A stretch of 64,000 nt of DNA from a virus (taxonomy: Duplodnaviria > Caudoviricetes), in IMG/VR virus record IMGVR_UViG_3300044620_001883, positions 136,256 through 200,255 of that record; one strand, 5' to 3'. Under the pieces are notes generated by a model. The model was not told the DNA's origin. It worked only from the letters and a program-made list of their open reading frames with translations, and searched no databases. A program made the translations under genes and the position numbers. Within the stretch, counting starts at the first letter, position 1. Every line of letters begins with the position of its first letter. This document shows positions 1 through 35,235 of the stretch, in pieces.

Positions 1-219
1 CGTATCGAGAGTAGGGTCGAAGCAAAGGTCATGATCGAAGTCAGGATCTCGGCTATTGAGGCTGCCCTGAAGACCAACAAGGATGCAGCCTGGCTCGCGG
101 ATGAGAACCTCGTGAAGCGACTCGATATCCAGCAGGAGCGAATTACACAACTGGTCAGCAAGATCGATGGACTGCACGTGACCGTCACACCAAGCGCAAG
201 TTCAACTACACCCCCATGA
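1..219 (+). CDS. Hypothetical protein, 5'-truncated (frame open from position 1), coiled-coil-like
   Basis: Frame is open from the window edge to TGA at 217-219, overlapping the next ATG (ATGA coupling). Confidence 0.6.
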   Translation, partial: RIESRVEAKVMIEVRISAIEAALKTNKDAAWLADENLVKRLDIQQERITQLVSKIDGLHVTVTPSASSTTPP

Positions 220-13875: not shown

Positions 13876-13913
13876 CCACCCGTCGTCCTTCGGGGCGGCG
13901 GGTGGCTTTTCGT
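13876..13913 (+). terminator. Rho-independent terminator
   Basis: CCACCCGTCGTCC-TTCG-GGGCGGCGGGTGG stem with C(UUCG)G loop, followed by CTTTTCGTT, just after stop 13870. Confidence 0.85.
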
Positions 13914-13967
13914 TAGCTATGACGTCGCTTGACCTGTACAGGCTTTCGTGGTCAAATGTGTGTTGTC

Positions 13968-19818: not shown

Positions 19819-20679
19819 ATGCCCACTACCTCTACATTCCCAGACCTCCTGCCCGGCCAAGCTTCCATGGCAGATCCTACAGCTGTCCGGTACCTCCAGA
19901 CGGCGCTTAACAGCCAAGGCTATCCGGTGCCCGTCAACGGCAAGTACGACAAAGCCACCATCGCCGCTGTCTTCAACTTCCAGGGTGTCCGGCTAGACCG
20001 TAAAGGTCGTCACCTCAAAGCTGACGGCTGGGTTGGTCCTGCCACTTGGTGGGCCATTCAGAATCCGTCAGGCGCGTCCCAGAAGTCCAACCTCGAGGGC
20101 GACACCCGCAAGGGGTTGTCTGCTGAACGCCGCGCAATCATCAAAGCTTTCCTGAAGGACCACACAGCCGGGGTGCGGGAGATCCCTGATGGTGCCAACT
20201 ACGGTGACGGTGTGACCCGCTACCTGACTGTCATCGGTCCTGCGTACTGGTGCTGCTACGCTGTCAGCACATGGCACAAAGATGCAGTGGGCACCTGGCC
20301 CTTCGGGGAACGCTTCGGGTTAGTGGCCGGGATCTGGAATGAAGCCAAAGAGCGCGGACGCGCGATCCTGAAGGAGGACACCAGCACGGCTGTCCCGGGC
20401 GATGCGTTCGTGATGCTGTACCGGAATGCCAAAGGCAGACTCACAGGCCTGGGTCACATCGGGCTTGTCCTGACTGCCAGCCAAGACGGGGAGTCCTTCA
20501 ATACCGGCGAAGGTAATGCCGGCAATCGCGTGAAGATCAGCCGGCGTGAGACTGACCAGGACACGCTGGTCGGTTACATTGACTTCTTCGGGGACCGGGC
20601 TGCTGTCCTTCCCAAGTTCGAACGTGGGCTGTTGTCCAAGTCGGAAGCGGCGGATTCGTCACTAGCTGGCACACGCTGA
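19819..20679 (+). CDS. Endolysin: PG-binding domain plus CHAP amidase
   Basis: VRYLQTALNSQGY...NGKYDKATIAAVFNFQ...ADGWVGPATW; catalytic YWCCYAV, PGD, GHIGLV, GEGN. Confidence 0.88.
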   Translation: MPTTSTFPDLLPGQASMADPTAVRYLQTALNSQGYPVPVNGKYDKATIAAVFNFQGVRLDRKGRHLKADGWVGPATWWAIQNPSGASQKSNLEGDTRKGLSAERRAIIKAFLKDHTAGVREIPDGANYGDGVTRYLTVIGPAYWCCYAVSTWHKDAVGTWPFGERFGLVAGIWNEAKERGRAILKEDTSTAVPGDAFVMLYRNAKGRLTGLGHIGLVLTASQDGESFNTGEGNAGNRVKISRRETDQDTLVGYIDFFGDRAAVLPKFERGLLSKSEAADSSLAGTR

Positions 20680-21023: not shown

Positions 21024-21281
21024 ATGCCTGACAAAATAACACCCTTGAGAATAATCCAACCCACACCTCCAGCTGCCGAGGTCCCGGCAGAAGTCATTGC
21101 TACCTCGATCACCCAGATCGCGAAGGCCATGAAGGACCTGACTAGTACGCGGCTCGGCCGTAATGCGATCGTGACCCTGATCCACGCTGCCAGCAAGGTT
21201 CCCAAGCGTGACATCGTGGCCGTCATGGGCAGCCTCGAGAATCTGGAGCGTGACTGGCTGAAACCCAAACCCAAGGCGTGA
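21024..21281 (+). CDS. Hypothetical protein
   Basis: 85 aa, coupled to the next gene. Confidence 0.7.
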   Translation: MPDKITPLRIIQPTPPAAEVPAEVIATSITQIAKAMKDLTSTRLGRNAIVTLIHAASKVPKRDIVAVMGSLENLERDWLKPKPKA

Positions 21282-21562
21282 ACGCAGATAACACAGATCG
21301 CATCTTGCAAGACCTCAAGCAAACCATCGACAAGTTACCACCGACCGCAATTGGCGTTGTGCTGGAAACCTGGCGCGTGCGAATTGACGATATTCGAAAA
21401 CAACTAAAGTTTACAGGCAGATCACTAACAGACGTAACGTGCCCAGCTGCGCGTGAGCTGATGACGCTGGAAATGGCCGTACGTCAAATCGAGGCGGCCT
21501 GTGCTGTTGAGCGCGGGGATGGACTCGATGCCATCCGTATCCTTTTGAACCCCACCCCATGA
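21278..21562 (+). CDS. Hypothetical protein
   Basis: 94 aa, coupled on both sides. Confidence 0.6.
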   Translation: MNADNTDRILQDLKQTIDKLPPTAIGVVLETWRVRIDDIRKQLKFTGRSLTDVTCPAARELMTLEMAVRQIEAACAVERGDGLDAIRILLNPTP

Positions 21563-22188
21563 GCACCACCCGTCGCGAGAAAGCCCGACGACTCAAGAAC
21601 GCAGAGGGTGTGATCATCTGCAGCTGTGGCTGTGGTCAGATTCCAAAGCCACCACGTCAGACTTGGTTCAGCCAGGCCTGCGTGGATGGTTGGCGGGAGA
21701 AGAATGATCCGGGGTACATCCGCCAGCAGATGCTGAAGCGCGACAAGGGGATCTGCGCTCTGTGTGGTGTCGACTGCGTCAAGATCCAGAAGACAGTACA
21801 GCGGCTGCAACACCTGCTGCGCTGCAGCCCTCCAGATCACGGTCAGCGCAAGTTCCGGGAAGGTCACAGTTACAACGGGCAGTTTCTGCGCAGCAAGTAC
21901 GACAGGTGCCTGGCAATCTGGCAACGGTGGCGGCACAAGCGTATTACAGCTGCCAGGAACCGACTGGAGCGTATCAGGGCTCAGGGTTGGAACCTGGACC
22001 GGAAGACACAATGGGATGCGGATCACATCCTACCCGTCATCGAGGGTGGGGGTCTGTGTGGTCTTGTCTCGATGCAGACACTGTGCGTACCTTGTCATAA
22101 GGAGAAAACCAAACAGCATGCAAAAGACCGGGCGCAAAGAAGGCGAGAGAGTAGTGGGTGTTTACCAGATCAAGTGCCTGGTAACTAG
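21559..22188 (+). CDS. HNH endonuclease
   Basis: CSCGCG, RDKGICALCG, WDADHILPVIEGGG...QTLCVPCHKEKT. Confidence 0.88.
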   Translation: MSTTRREKARRLKNAEGVIICSCGCGQIPKPPRQTWFSQACVDGWREKNDPGYIRQQMLKRDKGICALCGVDCVKIQKTVQRLQHLLRCSPPDHGQRKFREGHSYNGQFLRSKYDRCLAIWQRWRHKRITAARNRLERIRAQGWNLDRKTQWDADHILPVIEGGGLCGLVSMQTLCVPCHKEKTKQHAKDRAQRRRESSGCLPDQVPGN

Positions 22189-22927
22189 CCATGTCTATGT
22201 GGGCAGCTCTGTGCACTGCCTGCGGCGGTTTAAGTATCACAAGACGCAGCTCCGAGGCGGTACGCACACCAACAGACACCTACAAGCGGCGTGGTGTAAG
22301 TACGGCGAAGCGCAGTTTGAGTTCATGATTATTAGACAGCTCACGGCTCCTTTGGGACCTGAGGTGTTGCTAACCTGTGAACGAGCCCTCTGTGTGAAGC
22401 TTAAAGCCCTTGATCCGTGCCACGGTTACAACCAACAGCAACCCGGTGCGGTGTACTGCCGTAGCACCGCTGAAGAGACCAAGCGCAAAATAGGCGACGC
22501 CAACCGAGGTAAGAAGAGAACACCAGAACAGGTTAAGCGCGCGCGTGATGCATTTTTACTGGCTACCGCGGGCAGGCCAGGTCCGAATAAAGGACGCAAG
22601 TTTGGACCCGATGTGCGACAGAAGATACGTCAAGCCCGTCTAGGCCGTCCGTCCTACACACGCAGTGCGGCGACGCTGCAAAAGCAGTCGTTAGTTTTGA
22701 AGAGCTTTTACACAACACCCAAGGGGCAGATTCTACGCGCCGCGCGCGGGAGGCCAGCGGAGCCGTGCACCAACTGTAGCTGTATCGTTAAGACACGCCG
22801 ACGCGGTTTATGCGGAGCATGTAACGAGTACAAGAGGCGCACAGGGAACGCTCGACCTCCTGGAGGTTTTCCACAGGGTGGAGGCAGGCATGGGCGAAAA
22901 ACCCTGGCAAAGCCGCACGCTTTGTAA
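22118..22927 (+). mobile_element. Free-standing GIY-YIG homing endonuclease with NUMOD3-like repeats and a C-terminal Zn finger
   Basis: VGVYQIKC...VYVGSS...RRFKYH...HTNRHLQAAW.KYG..QFEF; TAEETKRKIGDANRGKKRT; CTNC...CGAC; start overlaps the 3' end of the HNH gene. Confidence 0.88.
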
Positions 22928-23030
22928 CCCCTGCCACAAAAAGGTCACCAAGGAACTAGCAGCCCGGCGAGCTGAACACCGCAGGCAGGAGAAAAAGCAG
23001 TTGCAAACCCTGACCGTTTCGCCATCATGA
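22917..23030 (+). pseudogene. Orphaned duplicate of the HNH C-terminus
   Basis: TLCNPCHKKVTKELAARRAEHRRQE aligns with TLCVPCHKEKTKQHAKDRAQRRRES of the HNH gene. Confidence 0.75.
23001..23028 (+). promoter_or_regulatory. Putative promoter TTGCAA-N16-CATCAT for the downstream ncRNA candidate
   Basis: Predicted start (~23035) coincides with the first paired base of the structure. Confidence 0.5.
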
Positions 23031-23034
23031 CTGT

Positions 23035-23167
23035 GCCGCGTGTCGCAACCGGTTTCCCCAGAGAAGAGATTCTGAAATAGCGGATTCGTCCTGCAACATC
23101 AGATCTTACCATCAGACCCCTTCTACAGGTCTACAGGTAATCTGGGAGACCGGCCTCGACACGCGGC
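23035..23167 (+). ncRNA. Candidate ~133-nt three-way-junction non-coding RNA
   Basis: Perfect 11-bp terminal stem plus a 13-bp continuation; two internal hairpins, one with a UUCG loop; intergenic; flanked by promoters. Confidence 0.65.
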
Positions 23168-23184
23168 TCTTTGCGTACATGGCG

Positions 23185-23213
23185 TTGACGTCCAGCCAGT
23201 GACCTCGTAATGT
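23185..23213 (+). promoter_or_regulatory. Putative promoter TTGACG-N17-TAATGT; near-leaderless to ATG 23221
   Basis: Near-consensus sigma70-type elements. Confidence 0.65.
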
Positions 23214-23220
23214 CCAGATC

Positions 23221-23583
23221 ATGGACACATCCAAGTACCGCCCCCTTGCCTATCTGCTGGGCTCCAAGACAACTTATTCTGCCGCCGACGCTGTAGGCAG
23301 TCCGGCGAATCGGAACATGTACCGCCACCACACCTTCCAGCGCATTGTGAAGGATGAAGGCGGCGGCAACCCTGCCGTTAAGATCCAGGCGCGGATCATC
23401 CCCGTCGAGGACGCTGTGGATGCCGCGGAGTGGTCCACCATTGCCACACTCAACAACTCCACACCCATTGCCTTCTTCGGTCACACGCTCTTGCCGGCTG
23501 TCCGGGCTGTACGTGATGACGGCAGCACTGTGGAAATCAAGGTCTTGGTGTTCAGTGGCAATGACCGTGACGATGAAGGCTGA
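23221..23583 (+). CDS. Hypothetical beta-rich protein
   Basis: 120 aa, first gene of the operon containing the beta' C-terminal half. Confidence 0.75.
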   Translation: MDTSKYRPLAYLLGSKTTYSAADAVGSPANRNMYRHHTFQRIVKDEGGGNPAVKIQARIIPVEDAVDAAEWSTIATLNNSTPIAFFGHTLLPAVRAVRDDGSTVEIKVLVFSGNDRDDEG

Positions 23584-23588
23584 TCCCT

Positions 23589-26579
23589 ATGCGCGTCAAA
23601 GCCATCCAGTATGCGGTCAATTCGGTGCTACCTCCAGAGCTGCGCGACTATCAACGCCCTCTGGACGGTAAAGGGATCGAGCGTCTGATGCACCAGGTGG
23701 CGGTAAGCTACCCGGACAAATATGCGGAGGTGCTCCGTCACATCGGTGACCTGGGACGCAACGCCGCGTACTGGCAAGGTGAGACCATGGGACTCGATGA
23801 TCTGCGCGACGTCATCGACACGCCCGGCTATTTGCGCCAGATGGACACGGAGGTCGACGCAGCCACACGAGGCCTCAAGGATCCGCAGGCGATCCGGGAA
23901 GCCCGGGAGGGTGTCTGGCATAAATGGGCGTCCAAGCTGGAGCGCGACACCATGACGGCCGCGCTGGTGAAGAACAACGCGATCGGTGAATCTGTGGCAT
24001 CCGGAGCACGCGGCAAGCCTGTGCAGGCCCGCGCTATGCTTTCCACGCCGGCGATCTTCGAAGACAGCCAGGGTCGCACCATCCCGCTCTTCGCCCGCAG
24101 TTCTTACTCCCAGGGTGTGTCTCCTGGTGCCTGGCTTGCTGGGACCTACGGCGCCCGCAAGGCAGTCGTGAGTACAAAGGTCTCGACTGCCAAAGGTGGG
24201 TTCTTGGCGAAAATGCTCACACAGGTTGCTGCTCCTCTGATCGTGACTGAGCCAGACTGCGGAACCACCAACGGCATCGATCTTTCCAAAGACGCGCCCG
24301 ACCTGCGCAACCGCTTCCTGGCCGCCCCTGCCGGTGGGCTTGACGGTGGGTCTCTTCTGGACCGCAAGGGCATCGCGCAGATCAAAAACAAGTTCAAGGG
24401 CGACACCATCCTGGTGCGATCTGCTCTGACCTGCCAGGCCCCTCGTGGTGTTTGCGCCAAGTGTATCGGGGCAGACCCGCGCGGACAGCTCCACCGTGTT
24501 GGCTACGCCGCAGGGATCACAGCCTCGAACGCGCTCGGAGAACCTGCTTGTTTGCATGGTAGCACCCTGGTGCGCATGGCAGATGGAAGTGTCAGACCGA
24601 TCACCGCTATCCGAGTTGGTGACATGGTGCTAGGCGCGGATATACAAGGGGTGCTGCGTCCAACAAGGGTCATGAATACGTTCGTGAACGGTATGCGTCA
24701 CTGCTTTAGAACGGTTGTGCGTAAGGGCTTCGGTGCCAAGTCTGATCGTATCGAGTTAATTTCCACAGCAGAACATAAAGTTCTAAGCTTCAAAGGCAAA
24801 CGTCACAAGAAGGCGTATCCAACTATCGCAAGCATAGAAATGCCAGCAGAAGTAAACCCCCAACACAGCGTGTACATGGCAGCGGGTTGCCCTGATTTCG
24901 TAGGCGTTGTCGAGCCGTGGGCCATGCTGCTCGGGGCACTTACAGGTGACGGTTGTTACACCGGAGGAAAAGGCTCTGATGGCAAAGGCATCGGTTTTTC
25001 CTGCTACGATCAGCTTCTCACTGAAGACATGCAGAGAGCGCTACATGCACACGGATTGAAGCTGAGCGGCAGCGAAGCAAGCGAGTTTCGTGTAAACATG
25101 CAAGACCAATATAGCGCGTTCGAATACATCGATGGTAAATTAGTACGTAACAAGCTGCGTGCGGTGCTTATCAAAGAAGGTATGTGGGGGCAGTACAGTG
25201 GTGAAAAAACACCTCCAAGAAACATTCAGAGGTGGGACAACGCATCCGTAGCAGCTTACATCGGTGGGTTGCTGGCCACAGATGGGTGGATCACCACAAC
25301 CGGAAGTGTTGCTGGGTTTAGCAGCAACTCCCAGCTGCTGCTGCAGACTGTCAAGGACCTGTGTGAGCTGCGTTTTGGTATCTACGGATCGCGCATAATC
25401 CCGAAGTACAAAAGAAAGAAAGGGACCCAACAGTTTTACGCACCAACGTTTGAGTTCACGATCTGCGGCGCAGAGAACATGCGAAAGTTGTTCGCGCATA
25501 TACCTGTGCCAGGTTGCAAACAAGCAAGGCTGCAAAAGAAAGCACAGGAACCAACTAAAACACGCATGTGCGCGGGGCGTTTCACCGTGCTTGAGCAAGT
25601 GTACTACGGGTTTGAGATGACTTACGACATTGAGGTGGACAACGACACCCACCTCTTTGCGCTCGCCAATGGTCTGGTTGTTTCAAACACACAGGCGGCC
25701 CTGCGGGAAAAGCACACATCAGGCGCAGCGTCTAAGAAGGCCTCGTACTCGGGGTTGGATTGGCTGCAGCGGTTCGTGCAGGTGCCAGACAGTTTCCCAG
25801 ATCGCGCCCCCGTGGCTGAGCAAGATGGGACCGTGACGGTCATGGAGGCCCCGCAAGGTGGTCACTATGTACACATCGGAGATCAGGAGCATTACGTACC
25901 GGCCAACCTGGAAGTAACCGTCAAGACAGGCGAGCGTGTTGAAGCCGGGCAACCTCTGTCGGAAGGGGTCGTGCGCCCTGATGACGTGGTGCGGTTGCGT
26001 GGCGTTGGGGAAGGTCGCCGATACTACAGCGACCGCCTTGGGCAGATGTTTGCCGACTCAGGCTTCCGCGCGGACCCGCGCAACGTCGAGCTGATTGCGC
26101 GTGCGGCGGTCGATCATGTGCAGATCGACGATCCTGAGGATCTGCCAGACGGTGTGCTCCCTGACGACACAGTACAGTTCGGGGAGTTCATGCGCAATTA
26201 CGAGCCCGCCGAGGGATCCCAAATACGGGATATCAAGGAGGCCGCCGGCCAGTACCTACAGCAGCCCGCCCTCCACTACACACCCGGCACCAAACTCACA
26301 GGCAGCATGGTCGAGCGTCTAGGCAAGGCTGGCATCTCGAAGATCATGACCAACGAGAAAGCGCCGCCTTTCCACCCCGCAATGGTGCGCCTTCAAACGT
26401 CCTCGTTTTCAAATCCGGATTGGCTGGCCAGCTTGTCGACCTCTTACCTCGGCAAACAGCTCGCCACGGGAGCGGCGCGCGGGCAGGACACCAACATCGA
26501 ACACAACATCCACTTTGCACCCCGGCTTGCTGTGGGTGTAGACTTTGGCAAGAACATCGAAACCACCGGAGAATTTTGA
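23589..26579 (+). CDS. Phage RNA polymerase beta'-like subunit, C-terminal part (bridge helix, Zn site, trigger loop); intein-containing
   Basis: SGARGK; GTYGARKAVVSTKVSTAKGGFLAKML (bridge helix); EPDCGT; RSALTC..PRGVCAKC; ALGEPA/TQAALREKHTSG (trigger loop); region-H-like C-terminus. Confidence 0.92.
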   Translation: MRVKAIQYAVNSVLPPELRDYQRPLDGKGIERLMHQVAVSYPDKYAEVLRHIGDLGRNAAYWQGETMGLDDLRDVIDTPGYLRQMDTEVDAATRGLKDPQAIREAREGVWHKWASKLERDTMTAALVKNNAIGESVASGARGKPVQARAMLSTPAIFEDSQGRTIPLFARSSYSQGVSPGAWLAGTYGARKAVVSTKVSTAKGGFLAKMLTQVAAPLIVTEPDCGTTNGIDLSKDAPDLRNRFLAAPAGGLDGGSLLDRKGIAQIKNKFKGDTILVRSALTCQAPRGVCAKCIGADPRGQLHRVGYAAGITASNALGEPACLHGSTLVRMADGSVRPITAIRVGDMVLGADIQGVLRPTRVMNTFVNGMRHCFRTVVRKGFGAKSDRIELISTAEHKVLSFKGKRHKKAYPTIASIEMPAEVNPQHSVYMAAGCPDFVGVVEPWAMLLGALTGDGCYTGGKGSDGKGIGFSCYDQLLTEDMQRALHAHGLKLSGSEASEFRVNMQDQYSAFEYIDGKLVRNKLRAVLIKEGMWGQYSGEKTPPRNIQRWDNASVAAYIGGLLATDGWITTTGSVAGFSSNSQLLLQTVKDLCELRFGIYGSRIIPKYKRKKGTQQFYAPTFEFTICGAENMRKLFAHIPVPGCKQARLQKKAQEPTKTRMCAGRFTVLEQVYYGFEMTYDIEVDNDTHLFALANGLVVSNTQAALREKHTSGAASKKASYSGLDWLQRFVQVPDSFPDRAPVAEQDGTVTVMEAPQGGHYVHIGDQEHYVPANLEVTVKTGERVEAGQPLSEGVVRPDDVVRLRGVGEGRRYYSDRLGQMFADSGFRADPRNVELIARAAVDHVQIDDPEDLPDGVLPDDTVQFGEFMRNYEPAEGSQIRDIKEAAGQYLQQPALHYTPGTKLTGSMVERLGKAGISKIMTNEKAPPFHPAMVRLQTSSFSNPDWLASLSTSYLGKQLATGAARGQDTNIEHNIHFAPRLAVGVDFGKNIETTGEF
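24549..25688 (+). mobile_element. Intein with LAGLIDADG homing endonuclease (380 aa) at GEPA|TQ of the trigger-loop region
   Basis: Starts CLHGSTLVRMADG and ends TYDIEVDNDTHLFALANGLVVSN before Thr+1; MLLGALTGDG and YIGGLLATDG. Confidence 0.93.
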
Positions 26580-33738: not shown

Positions 33739-35235
33739 ATGCAACCCTCTCTTCTGCAGCGTGAATCTGGCATATCCAAGACCTTCATGGCCCATGACTG
33801 GCCAGGACTCGTGGAAGACATGTCAGGGCATCTGACGACATTATTCGAACGCGGACATATCAAGACTGCCGCGTCGGATCTGTTCAGTCGCAAGGACCTC
33901 GACGACCATGCCCCGCCGCCTGGGTACTTTATGATCCATCAGACCGTGATGGGATCCGAGGAAGGTTACGGATTCAACAACAACGGCGACAGCTACCCGG
34001 ACGAGACGTTGAAGCGCGACCACCCGACATTCGTCACACACGGCCGCGTGTACCGGGAGCACCGCAACCGCGACCCCGAGAAAGCCATTGGGGTCATCAA
34101 GGCCGCGCGTTACTCGCAGAAGATGCAGCGCGTTGAACTCCTCAAGCACCTGGAGATCAGCAAAGCCGAGAAGGAGTATGAGATGGCCAAGGCAGGCAAA
34201 GAACTGCATGCCAGCATGGCCTGCCGTGTCCCGTTTGACGTGTGCTCTTGCTGTGAGCAAAAGGCCAAGTACGCAAGCCTGTACTGCAGCCACCTCAAGG
34301 AACGCATGATGCAATGGATACCATCATTCAAGAAGTATGCGCATGCCCGCAATACGATCTGCACCTTCTTCGACTCCAGTGTCGTCGAGAACCCGGCAGC
34401 GCGCGAGGCCAAGCACATCGAGTATCGATTCGGCCCGGAACTCCTGAAGGCAGCCAGCACACGTCCGTCCTTCTCCGGCGCGCAGTGGGCCGAGTTTGAA
34501 GGTGTGGATCTTTCCCAACACCTCACCATGAACCAAACCGAGACGTCTATCCTGCAGAAGCTGGCCAGCATTGAAGCATCGAACGCCCCCGACAGGTATC
34601 GGGACAACGTGTCCATGCATGGCTTCGCGAACACACACAACCTGCGGGATGAAGAGTGGGCGGCAGTGCAAAAGCTGCTGCCGGGTACATTGTTCAATAA
34701 ACTGGCACGGCGGCGTGTGCTGCTGCCCTTTGATCTGTTTGCCGCGTACGCGACAGGACGCAATCCGTCCGAGATCCGGAGCGACGCGGACTTCACCAAA
34801 GCAGCCAGCATGCTTCCGGGGATTTTCCGGGCGCTGGCCAGCGCGCTTGAAGGCGGCTCCAGCGGTGGGGGTTGTGGCTGCAATCAAGAGGACATGGACA
34901 TGTTCAGGGCTTCCTCCAATTCAGCCGCCGCCTTCGATCCCGGCAGCAGTGATGAGGTGGACAAGGTCATGGACAAAGCGACGGAACAGTTCAGCGCGGA
35001 GGCGGAACCGATTCGTCGTCGCGCCATTGTGATGATCACAATCAAGAAGGCGCAAGCCCGTGGTCCTGTACTTCCAGCACCGGCACCATTGGATCTTCCA
35101 CCTTTGCTGTCGTTGTACGGGTTGTACAAAATAGCGGCTGTGCGCGACATGCTGCACCTCGCGCAGGACAACAAACAGGACGTCGAACACGAGCTGCTGC
35201 GATGCAGCGTTGACCAGAACTCCTTTGCACTTTAA
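33739..35235 (+). CDS. Prohead maturation protease with a long C-terminal extension
   Basis: NNNGDSY, VYREHRN..P.KAIG.I..A, VELL, ASMACRVPFDVCSCC (His/Ser protease pattern); sits upstream of scaffold and capsid. Confidence 0.72.
   Translation: MQPSLLQRESGISKTFMAHDWPGLVEDMSGHLTTLFERGHIKTAASDLFSRKDLDDHAPPPGYFMIHQTVMGSEEGYGFNNNGDSYPDETLKRDHPTFVTHGRVYREHRNRDPEKAIGVIKAARYSQKMQRVELLKHLEISKAEKEYEMAKAGKELHASMACRVPFDVCSCCEQKAKYASLYCSHLKERMMQWIPSFKKYAHARNTICTFFDSSVVENPAAREAKHIEYRFGPELLKAASTRPSFSGAQWAEFEGVDLSQHLTMNQTETSILQKLASIEASNAPDRYRDNVSMHGFANTHNLRDEEWAAVQKLLPGTLFNKLARRRVLLPFDLFAAYATGRNPSEIRSDADFTKAASMLPGIFRALASALEGGSSGGGCGCNQEDMDMFRASSNSAAAFDPGSSDEVDKVMDKATEQFSAEAEPIRRRAIVMITIKKAQARGPVLPAPAPLDLPPLLSLYGLYKIAAVRDMLHLAQDNKQDVEHELLRCSVDQNSFAL

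Follow-up and report, generated by a model that had tools for sequence, protein, structure and literature searches.

A well-folded 133-nt RNA element with signals suggestive of a transcription unit upstream of an RNA polymerase operon in an uncultured lake phage

What is the branched 133-nt element that lies between a nuclease cassette and the RNA polymerase β′ C-terminal (β′-C) operon of an uncultured lake phage? The window that we analysed covers the final 64 kb of an IMG/VR record of 200,255 bp, which is estimated to be 98% complete. Structured RNA leaders are known from jumbo phages that encode multisubunit RNA polymerases of their own; free-standing phage small RNAs of defined function are, to our knowledge, few. 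We find that the element is real, well folded and a singleton in the data searched, that it falls into no known class, and that its flanking signals suggest a transcription unit. We lean, tentatively, toward reading it as a lineage-specific + strand small RNA gene that would double as a terminator/insulator between the HNH/GIY-YIG cassette and the β′ operon. Neighbouring genes and signals are collected in Table 1, where the + strand is the orientation of every gene around the element.

Table 1. Features around the 133-nt element, and the places of a recurring cassette (window coordinates unless marked genome)
Feature	Position	Strand	Basis or remark
PG-binding/CHAP endolysin	19819–20679	+	
Two small orphan ORFs (85 aa, 94 aa)	21024–21562	+	
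HNH nuclease gene	21559–22188	+	Pfam match
GIY-YIG gene, continuous with the HNH gene	ends 22927	+	Pfam match
50-codon frame, putative former 3′ end of the HNH gene, now stranded	22878–23030	+	CxxCHKK zinc-knuckle tail
Promoter-like element TTGCAA-16-CATCAT	23001–23028	+	within the stranded HNH end
133-nt three-way-junction RNA element	23035–23167	+	fold
U-rich tail TCTTT	23168–23172	+	directly 3′ of P1
Predicted promoter of the 120-aa gene/β′-C operon, TTGACG-17-TAATGT-7-ATG	23185–23220	+	leaderless-type layout
120-aa orphan gene	23221–23583	+	
RNA polymerase β′ C-terminal half with LAGLIDADG intein	23589–26579	+	Pfam RNA_pol_Rpb1_5, LAGLIDADG_3, Hint
Terminator-promoter cassette, five places	13880–13925; genome 12562–12620, 52871–52925, 71074–71130, 130257–130300		

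The gene upstream of the element appears to have been broken. In translation, the zinc-knuckle tail of the 50-codon frame duplicates the in-gene HNH end, and we interpret the frame as the original HNH end, stranded by insertion of the GIY-YIG gene; the translations agree with this. The stop codon of the stranded end lies 5 nt before the element. No second clear HNH or GIY-YIG gene is present in the phage genome. A 17-codon frame (23027–23080), whose ATG shares bases with the stop codon that closes the stranded HNH end (ATGA), enters the 5′ half of the RNA and stops in the internal loop of P2; this frame is probably due to chance. On the other side of the element, the 120-aa orphan protein is without a Pfam or PHROG match; its RHHxFQRI and GNPAVKIQ motifs are invariant. 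Its gene directly precedes the β′-C gene in every relative found. The protein could be a small subunit of the phage RNA polymerase or help in assembling the enzyme.

Folded with ViennaRNA, the element forms a three-way junction on a long interrupted stem. The closing helix P1 (23035–45/23157–67) has 11 Watson-Crick pairs, 8 of them G-C, and is separated by a 3×3 loop (CAA/CCU) from P1b (23049–62/23141–53), which has 13 pairs including one G·U, plus one bulged C. A GAA strand (J1/2, 23063–65) leads from P1b into the two arms. P2 (23066–23107) contains a 4×4 internal loop, and P3 (23107–23139) is built from UUACC/GGUAA, a 3×3 loop and AGACC/GGUCU, closed by a 9-nt CU-rich apical loop (23119–27). 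The first-pass annotation of this DNA had drawn P1, the 3×3 loop, P1b, P2 and P3, and all of them are present in the computed fold. The UUCG-capped apex that it proposed for P2 is formable and isoenergetic with a form that has a 7-nt loop (−62.3 versus −62.5 kcal/mol). The P3 loop has a single 5-bp match, between its CUUCU and an AGAAG at the junction (J1/2); this possible intramolecular contact (−5.5 kcal/mol, within chance) could compact the junction.

The fold is far more stable than expected from its composition. The minimum free energy of the element is −62.5 kcal/mol, compared with −34.6 ± 4.0 kcal/mol for 200 dinucleotide shuffles (z −6.9), none of which folded as well, and the median pair probability is 0.99. 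Adding 150 nt of flank on each side leaves the fold of the element identical. P1 alone is ordinary, with five perfect 11-bp inverted repeats enclosing loops of 20 to 130 nt in the genome; the nested whole fold, unlike P1 alone, is remarkable. Among the 26 intergenic gaps that were folded with shuffles, four have z below −4, and the element is the largest of these four. No + strand ORF of at least 20 aa lies within it. In a collection of 15 billion proteins, no gene call was ever made over this stretch, and spurious ORFs over the RNA are also absent there. Neither a sequence search nor a single-sequence covariance model (R1) found a second copy in the phage genome.

We find that promoter-like and terminator-like sequences flank the fold closely. 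TTGCAA (23001–06), a 16-nt spacer and CATCAT (23023–28) predict a start at the first paired G (G23035), 7 nt downstream. The loose motif to which this site belongs, TTG[AC][AC]N-16..18-NANNNT, occurs 5.4 × 10−4 times per base per strand in the genome. Its empirical chance of falling, in this genome, in the 4-nt placement window that puts the start at the first paired G is ~0.002. At the other end, TCTTT directly follows the last paired C, as the first-pass annotation had noted; 5-nt stretches with four or more T have a frequency of 0.009 in this genome. Taken together, promoter placement and U-rich tail have a joint chance of ~2 × 10−5, with both tests made post hoc. Occurrences of the loose motif 4 to 10 nt upstream of a long ORF's ATG number 35 on the + strand and 11 on the − strand. 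Before gene starts, this class is enriched in A or C at positions 4 and 5, and TTGCAN variants precede gene starts as well (for example, TTGCAA-18-CATCTT-7-ATG at genome 58041). Judged from this placement, the loose motif is a real promoter class in the phage.

Both promoter matches at this locus are weak, because a strict sigma-70 scan calls neither the TTGCAA/CATCAT of the element nor the promoter of the 120-aa gene. The latter (TTGACG-17-TAATGT, 23185–23213) had been described at the outset as the next gene's own promoter. It is indeed there, and it recurs in a related contig (L003) as TTGACG-17-TAAGAT-8-ATG, embedded in the end of an unrelated upstream ORF. The same leaderless-type layout is seen at other + strand genes (for example, at genome 16201, 73636, 133759, 136120, 151645 and 194296), which suggests that leaderless messages from a sigma-70-type polymerase are widespread in this phage. 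The earlier proposal that the element is independently transcribed thus stands in part: its sequence signals are better than chance (~0.002 and ~0.009), and the strict promoter scan is silent.

Whether the 3′ end could terminate transcription is a related matter. P1 (11 bp, 8 G-C) is followed by UCUUUG, with 4 U in 5 nt. Unlike in normal terminators, the stem encloses 111 nt and the U-tract is short. The consensus terminator scan admits only 3- to 8-nt loops and could not call a stem of the P1 type. By sequence, P1 together with TCTTT looks like an intrinsic terminator.

A chance fold without function would be consistent with the absence of the element from every relative compared, with the ordinariness of P1 (five such repeats) and with a genome that is rich in well-folded stretches. 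We nevertheless consider it very improbable, given a z of −6.9 with nested helices, the place of the element among the four of 26 gaps with z below −4, and the joint chance of its flanking signals.

The strand on which the element acts has to be considered separately from its fold. The reverse complement folds better (−70.3 kcal/mol, z −7.7). The internal loops of the + strand contain five A·C oppositions that turn into G·U on the − strand, and three + strand G·U pairs are lost. This wobble pattern (3 G·U versus 5 A·C) therefore does not identify the selected strand. On the − strand, no TTG-type promoter-like site lies within ~60 nt upstream and no U-run lies downstream. Taken together, these signals favour a discrete + strand transcript of about 135–138 nt with paired ends.

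The better − strand fold (−70.3 versus −62.5 kcal/mol) and its gain in G·U pairs (5, versus 3 the other way) would also fit an RNA of the − strand, or an element that acts as DNA. The latter could be a nested palindrome in decay, the remains of a mobile cassette that was either MITE-like or a hitch-hiker of a homing endonuclease. The arms are 24 nt long and 83% complementary, and the element adjoins two selfish nucleases and an intein-bearing gene. This explanation is improbable in our judgement. A DNA palindrome needs no three-way junction, the element is present as a single copy with no target-site duplication at its ends, and the − strand offers no promoter or terminator signal. No copy, exact or near, occurs in IMG/VR, where none of three exact two-part DNA patterns taken from the RNA found a match. 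The terminal-repeat pattern has 36 exact matches in 185,579 bacterial genomes, which is the level of chance, and none of them fits model R1. A MITE proper was also rejected, since inverted arms are present but target-site duplication, further genomic copies and IMG/VR copies are not. No inflection in GC skew was seen at the element, leaving an origin of replication unsupported.

If the element is a + strand small RNA gene, as we tentatively hold, is it shared by related phages? The 120-aa protein has three relatives in a large protein collection, at 81%, 50% and 45% identity, the closest of which (P0002) comes from Logan. A metagenome scan yielded two contigs (L002 and L003) with a 50%-identical 120-aa protein. 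In both, the endolysin gene, the 120-aa gene, an intein-free β′-C gene and the next gene lie in the same order. Between the endolysin and 120-aa genes, these contigs carry three unrelated ORFs, the last of which extends directly into the promoter. At the syntenic place they have neither a structured element nor a match to model R1. The element thus lies in a segment that relatives swap as a whole and whose content is entirely different in L002 and L003.

Relatives of the nuclease tell the same story. The HNH protein has 11 loci in IMG/VR, only one of them full-length (L004, 49% identical). No RNA follows the HNH gene of L004, where a convergent ORF begins at once, and R1 finds no copy in that record. 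Searches of IMG/VR with the 120-aa protein and with the β′-C N-extein, each as a single sequence and then as an alignment, returned no match. GenBank phages matched neither the DNA nor the 120-aa protein, and the β′-C protein is at most 29% identical to any. We found no counterpart of the element described in the literature. These comparisons suggest that the element is lineage-specific or recently acquired. It appears not to be a fixed partner of either the HNH gene or the RNA polymerase operon, because relatives of the HNH gene and of the 120-aa/β′-C genes were compared and lack it. A role as partner of the neighbouring nucleases, one of the functions first suggested, is therefore not borne out by the only full-length HNH relative found. 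We likewise rejected a partner of the RNA polymerase operon, as relatives that keep the 120-aa and β′-C genes lack the element.

A segment that differs wholly between relatives is also what is expected of a cassette boundary, and the element might be no more than a 3′ structure acting in cis. It would then belong to the upstream three-gene unit (the 85-aa ORF, the 94-aa ORF and the HNH gene with its inserted GIY-YIG gene) and serve as a terminator/attenuator, a block to 3′ exonucleases or a site for host RNase III, with no promoter of its own and no role in trans. Several features agree with this: the start of the element 5 nt after the original HNH stop codon, the U-rich tail that follows it, and its position just before the next promoter, like other hairpins of this genome. 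Furthermore, P1 and P1b form a stack of ~24 bp split by the 3×3 loop, which is the format of a T7-type RNase III site. We regard a purely cis-acting structure as rather unlikely. The element is far larger and more elaborate than the other terminators of the phage, which are hairpins of 9–14 bp, and the spacing of the promoter-like site puts the predicted start precisely on the first paired base. The phage genome also contains no RNase III gene, so any RNase III processing would need the host enzyme.

The resemblance to RNase III sites can be made more precise. T7 RNase III sites and the E. coli rplL-rpoB attenuator/RNase III site are simple hairpins of ~60 nt. Like them, the element is intergenic, lies between units and has a duplex of some two helical turns split by an internal loop. 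P1, the 3×3 loop and P1b (11 bp, 3×3 loop, 13 bp) have the duplex geometry of a T7-type site, at which cleavage would be hypothetical. As at rplL-rpoB, the element is located just upstream of RNA polymerase genes, and cleavage would leave a protective 3′ hairpin. It differs in that its duplex carries a 79-nt two-arm junction and in that the downstream operon has its own promoter.

We compared the element with known RNA families and with candidate roles. An Rfam search, which the first-pass annotation had proposed, assigned no family: none reached the gathering score for the element when the 200-kb genome was searched, and none appeared at E ≤ 10 over 22000–24200. ARAGORN predicts no tRNA or tmRNA at the element, and the sole tRNA in the genome is Ser-GGA (genome 63387–63463). 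A 6S-like decoy for RNA polymerase or sigma had been suggested at first, and a stable RNA with paired ends is what the two would share. 6S RNA is an unbranched rod with a promoter-mimicking bubble, whereas the element is branched at the top and its internal loops are 3×3, 4×4 and 3×3. The absence of a large central bubble and of an Rfam match led us to reject 6S RNA. No antisense target longer than 12 nt, the level of chance, was found in the phage genome.

The closest architectural likeness is to phi29 pRNA (RF00044). Both are of similar size (117–174 nt for pRNA), and both have an interrupted end-pairing helix, a three-way junction and two hairpin arms, the junction of the element being set on the helix formed by its paired 5′ and 3′ ends. 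pRNA is encoded by the phage with its own promoter, and the element is likewise phage-encoded with a promoter-like site. However, there is no match to RF00044 at E ≤ 10 and no loop-loop complementarity of at least 4 nt; no 4-mer in the P2 apex GGAUUCGUCC is complementary to one in the P3 loop CCUUCUACA. The phage itself also differs, being a 200-kb tailed phage and not a phi29-like podovirus. We therefore rejected pRNA, and the likeness is architectural only.

Other candidates were rejected through their protein partners. For Y RNA/YrlA, the genome has no TROVE domain (control genomes were positive) and Rfam gave no match; the P2 loop has no equivalent of the T-loop A58. For retron msr-msd RNA, there is no reverse transcriptase (RVT_1) match in the genome. 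For HEARO/omega RNA, Rfam again gave no match. The neighbour is a 209- to 224-aa HNH protein with zinc ribbons only, not a RuvC nuclease of IscB/TnpB size, and its 49%-identical relative in L004 has no RNA alongside. PeSL (promoter-early stem-loop) elements are short and repeated many times per genome. As cassettes, they reportedly occur in hyperplastic regions of T4-type phages, as is said to have been described by Arbiol et al. in 2010. Like them, the element is a stem-loop beside a promoter at the edge of a segment of variable gene content, with homing endonucleases nearby; it differs in being single-copy, 133 nt long and branched.

How would a small RNA gene that also insulates the β′ operon work? 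A sigma-70-type promoter in the stranded HNH end (TTGCAA-16-CATCAT) would start transcription at G23035. P2 and P3 would fold first, and P1b and then P1 would close once the polymerase has made their 3′ strands. The 11-bp, G+C-rich P1 helix and the UCUUU behind it would then bring about the release of an RNA of ~135–138 nt with both ends paired. Paired ends are the usual design of stable RNAs. The P1 helix and U-tail would also halt read-through from the HNH/GIY-YIG cassette. Since this stop would lie 13 nt before the −35 box of the 120-aa/β′-C promoter, the operon would be insulated. The existence, ends and strand of the transcript are predicted here from these sequence features. As for a role in trans, our guess is a protein-binding scaffold or decoy more than an antisense regulator, because the RNA would present an extended duplex with interruptions, a CU-rich loop and three internal loops that are symmetric and A-rich. 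We counted several findings against a small RNA gene: its absence from L002/L003 and L004, the weak promoter, the short U-tract and the better − strand fold. The usual boundary cassette of the phage (a short hairpin plus TTAGCTAT) is not used at this element, which we also counted against it.

One could go further and propose an undescribed class of phage small RNA. Such an RNA would be stable, end-paired and three-armed, and the host polymerase would transcribe it early, from a promoter that lies within a defunct gene end. Its action would be that of a protein-binding decoy or scaffold, directed for example against a host sensor of RNA duplexes or structure, or that of a modulator of the split RNA polymerase of the phage. 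In function, it would be analogous to adenovirus VA RNA or phi29 pRNA while being unrelated to either. We consider this more specific proposal a long shot.

What follows from the small RNA gene reading depends on the transcript. If the RNA is discrete and abundant, its position beside the polymerase genes would provide a handle on RNA-based control or counter-defence in phages. It would also mean that a promoter has remained functional in what is left of a gene that a homing endonuclease disrupted. If the element is only a terminator/insulator, it would be an ordinary boundary element of unusual size.

The genome carries other structured stretches. The cassette listed in Table 1 consists of a short G+C-rich hairpin, a T-rich sequence plus TTAGCTAT (once TTAGCTGT) only a few bases further on, and then a TTG box. 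Outside the window, a 781-nt stretch at genome 51,380–52,160 (L053:11780–12560) folds at −387.7 kcal/mol (z −11.4, 20 shuffles). It contains many perfect 10- to 14-bp hairpins and only ORFs with TTG or GTG starts, which have no Pfam match; the stretch has no Rfam match at E ≤ 1. Also outside the window, genome 33,700–33,875 (L052:13900–14075) folds as a rod of 176 nt that ends in a three-way junction (−71.5 kcal/mol, z −4.2). In the closing helix of this long rod, sequence around the start codon of the gene at 33864 is paired with a stretch that contains AGGAGG, and the rod therefore resembles a structured 5′ leader rather than a free-standing RNA. At genome 70,909–70,989, again outside the window, two tandem copies of a 33-nt unit, 48 nt apart, each form a 14-bp hairpin and lie inside a well-folded region at 70.8–71.1 kb.
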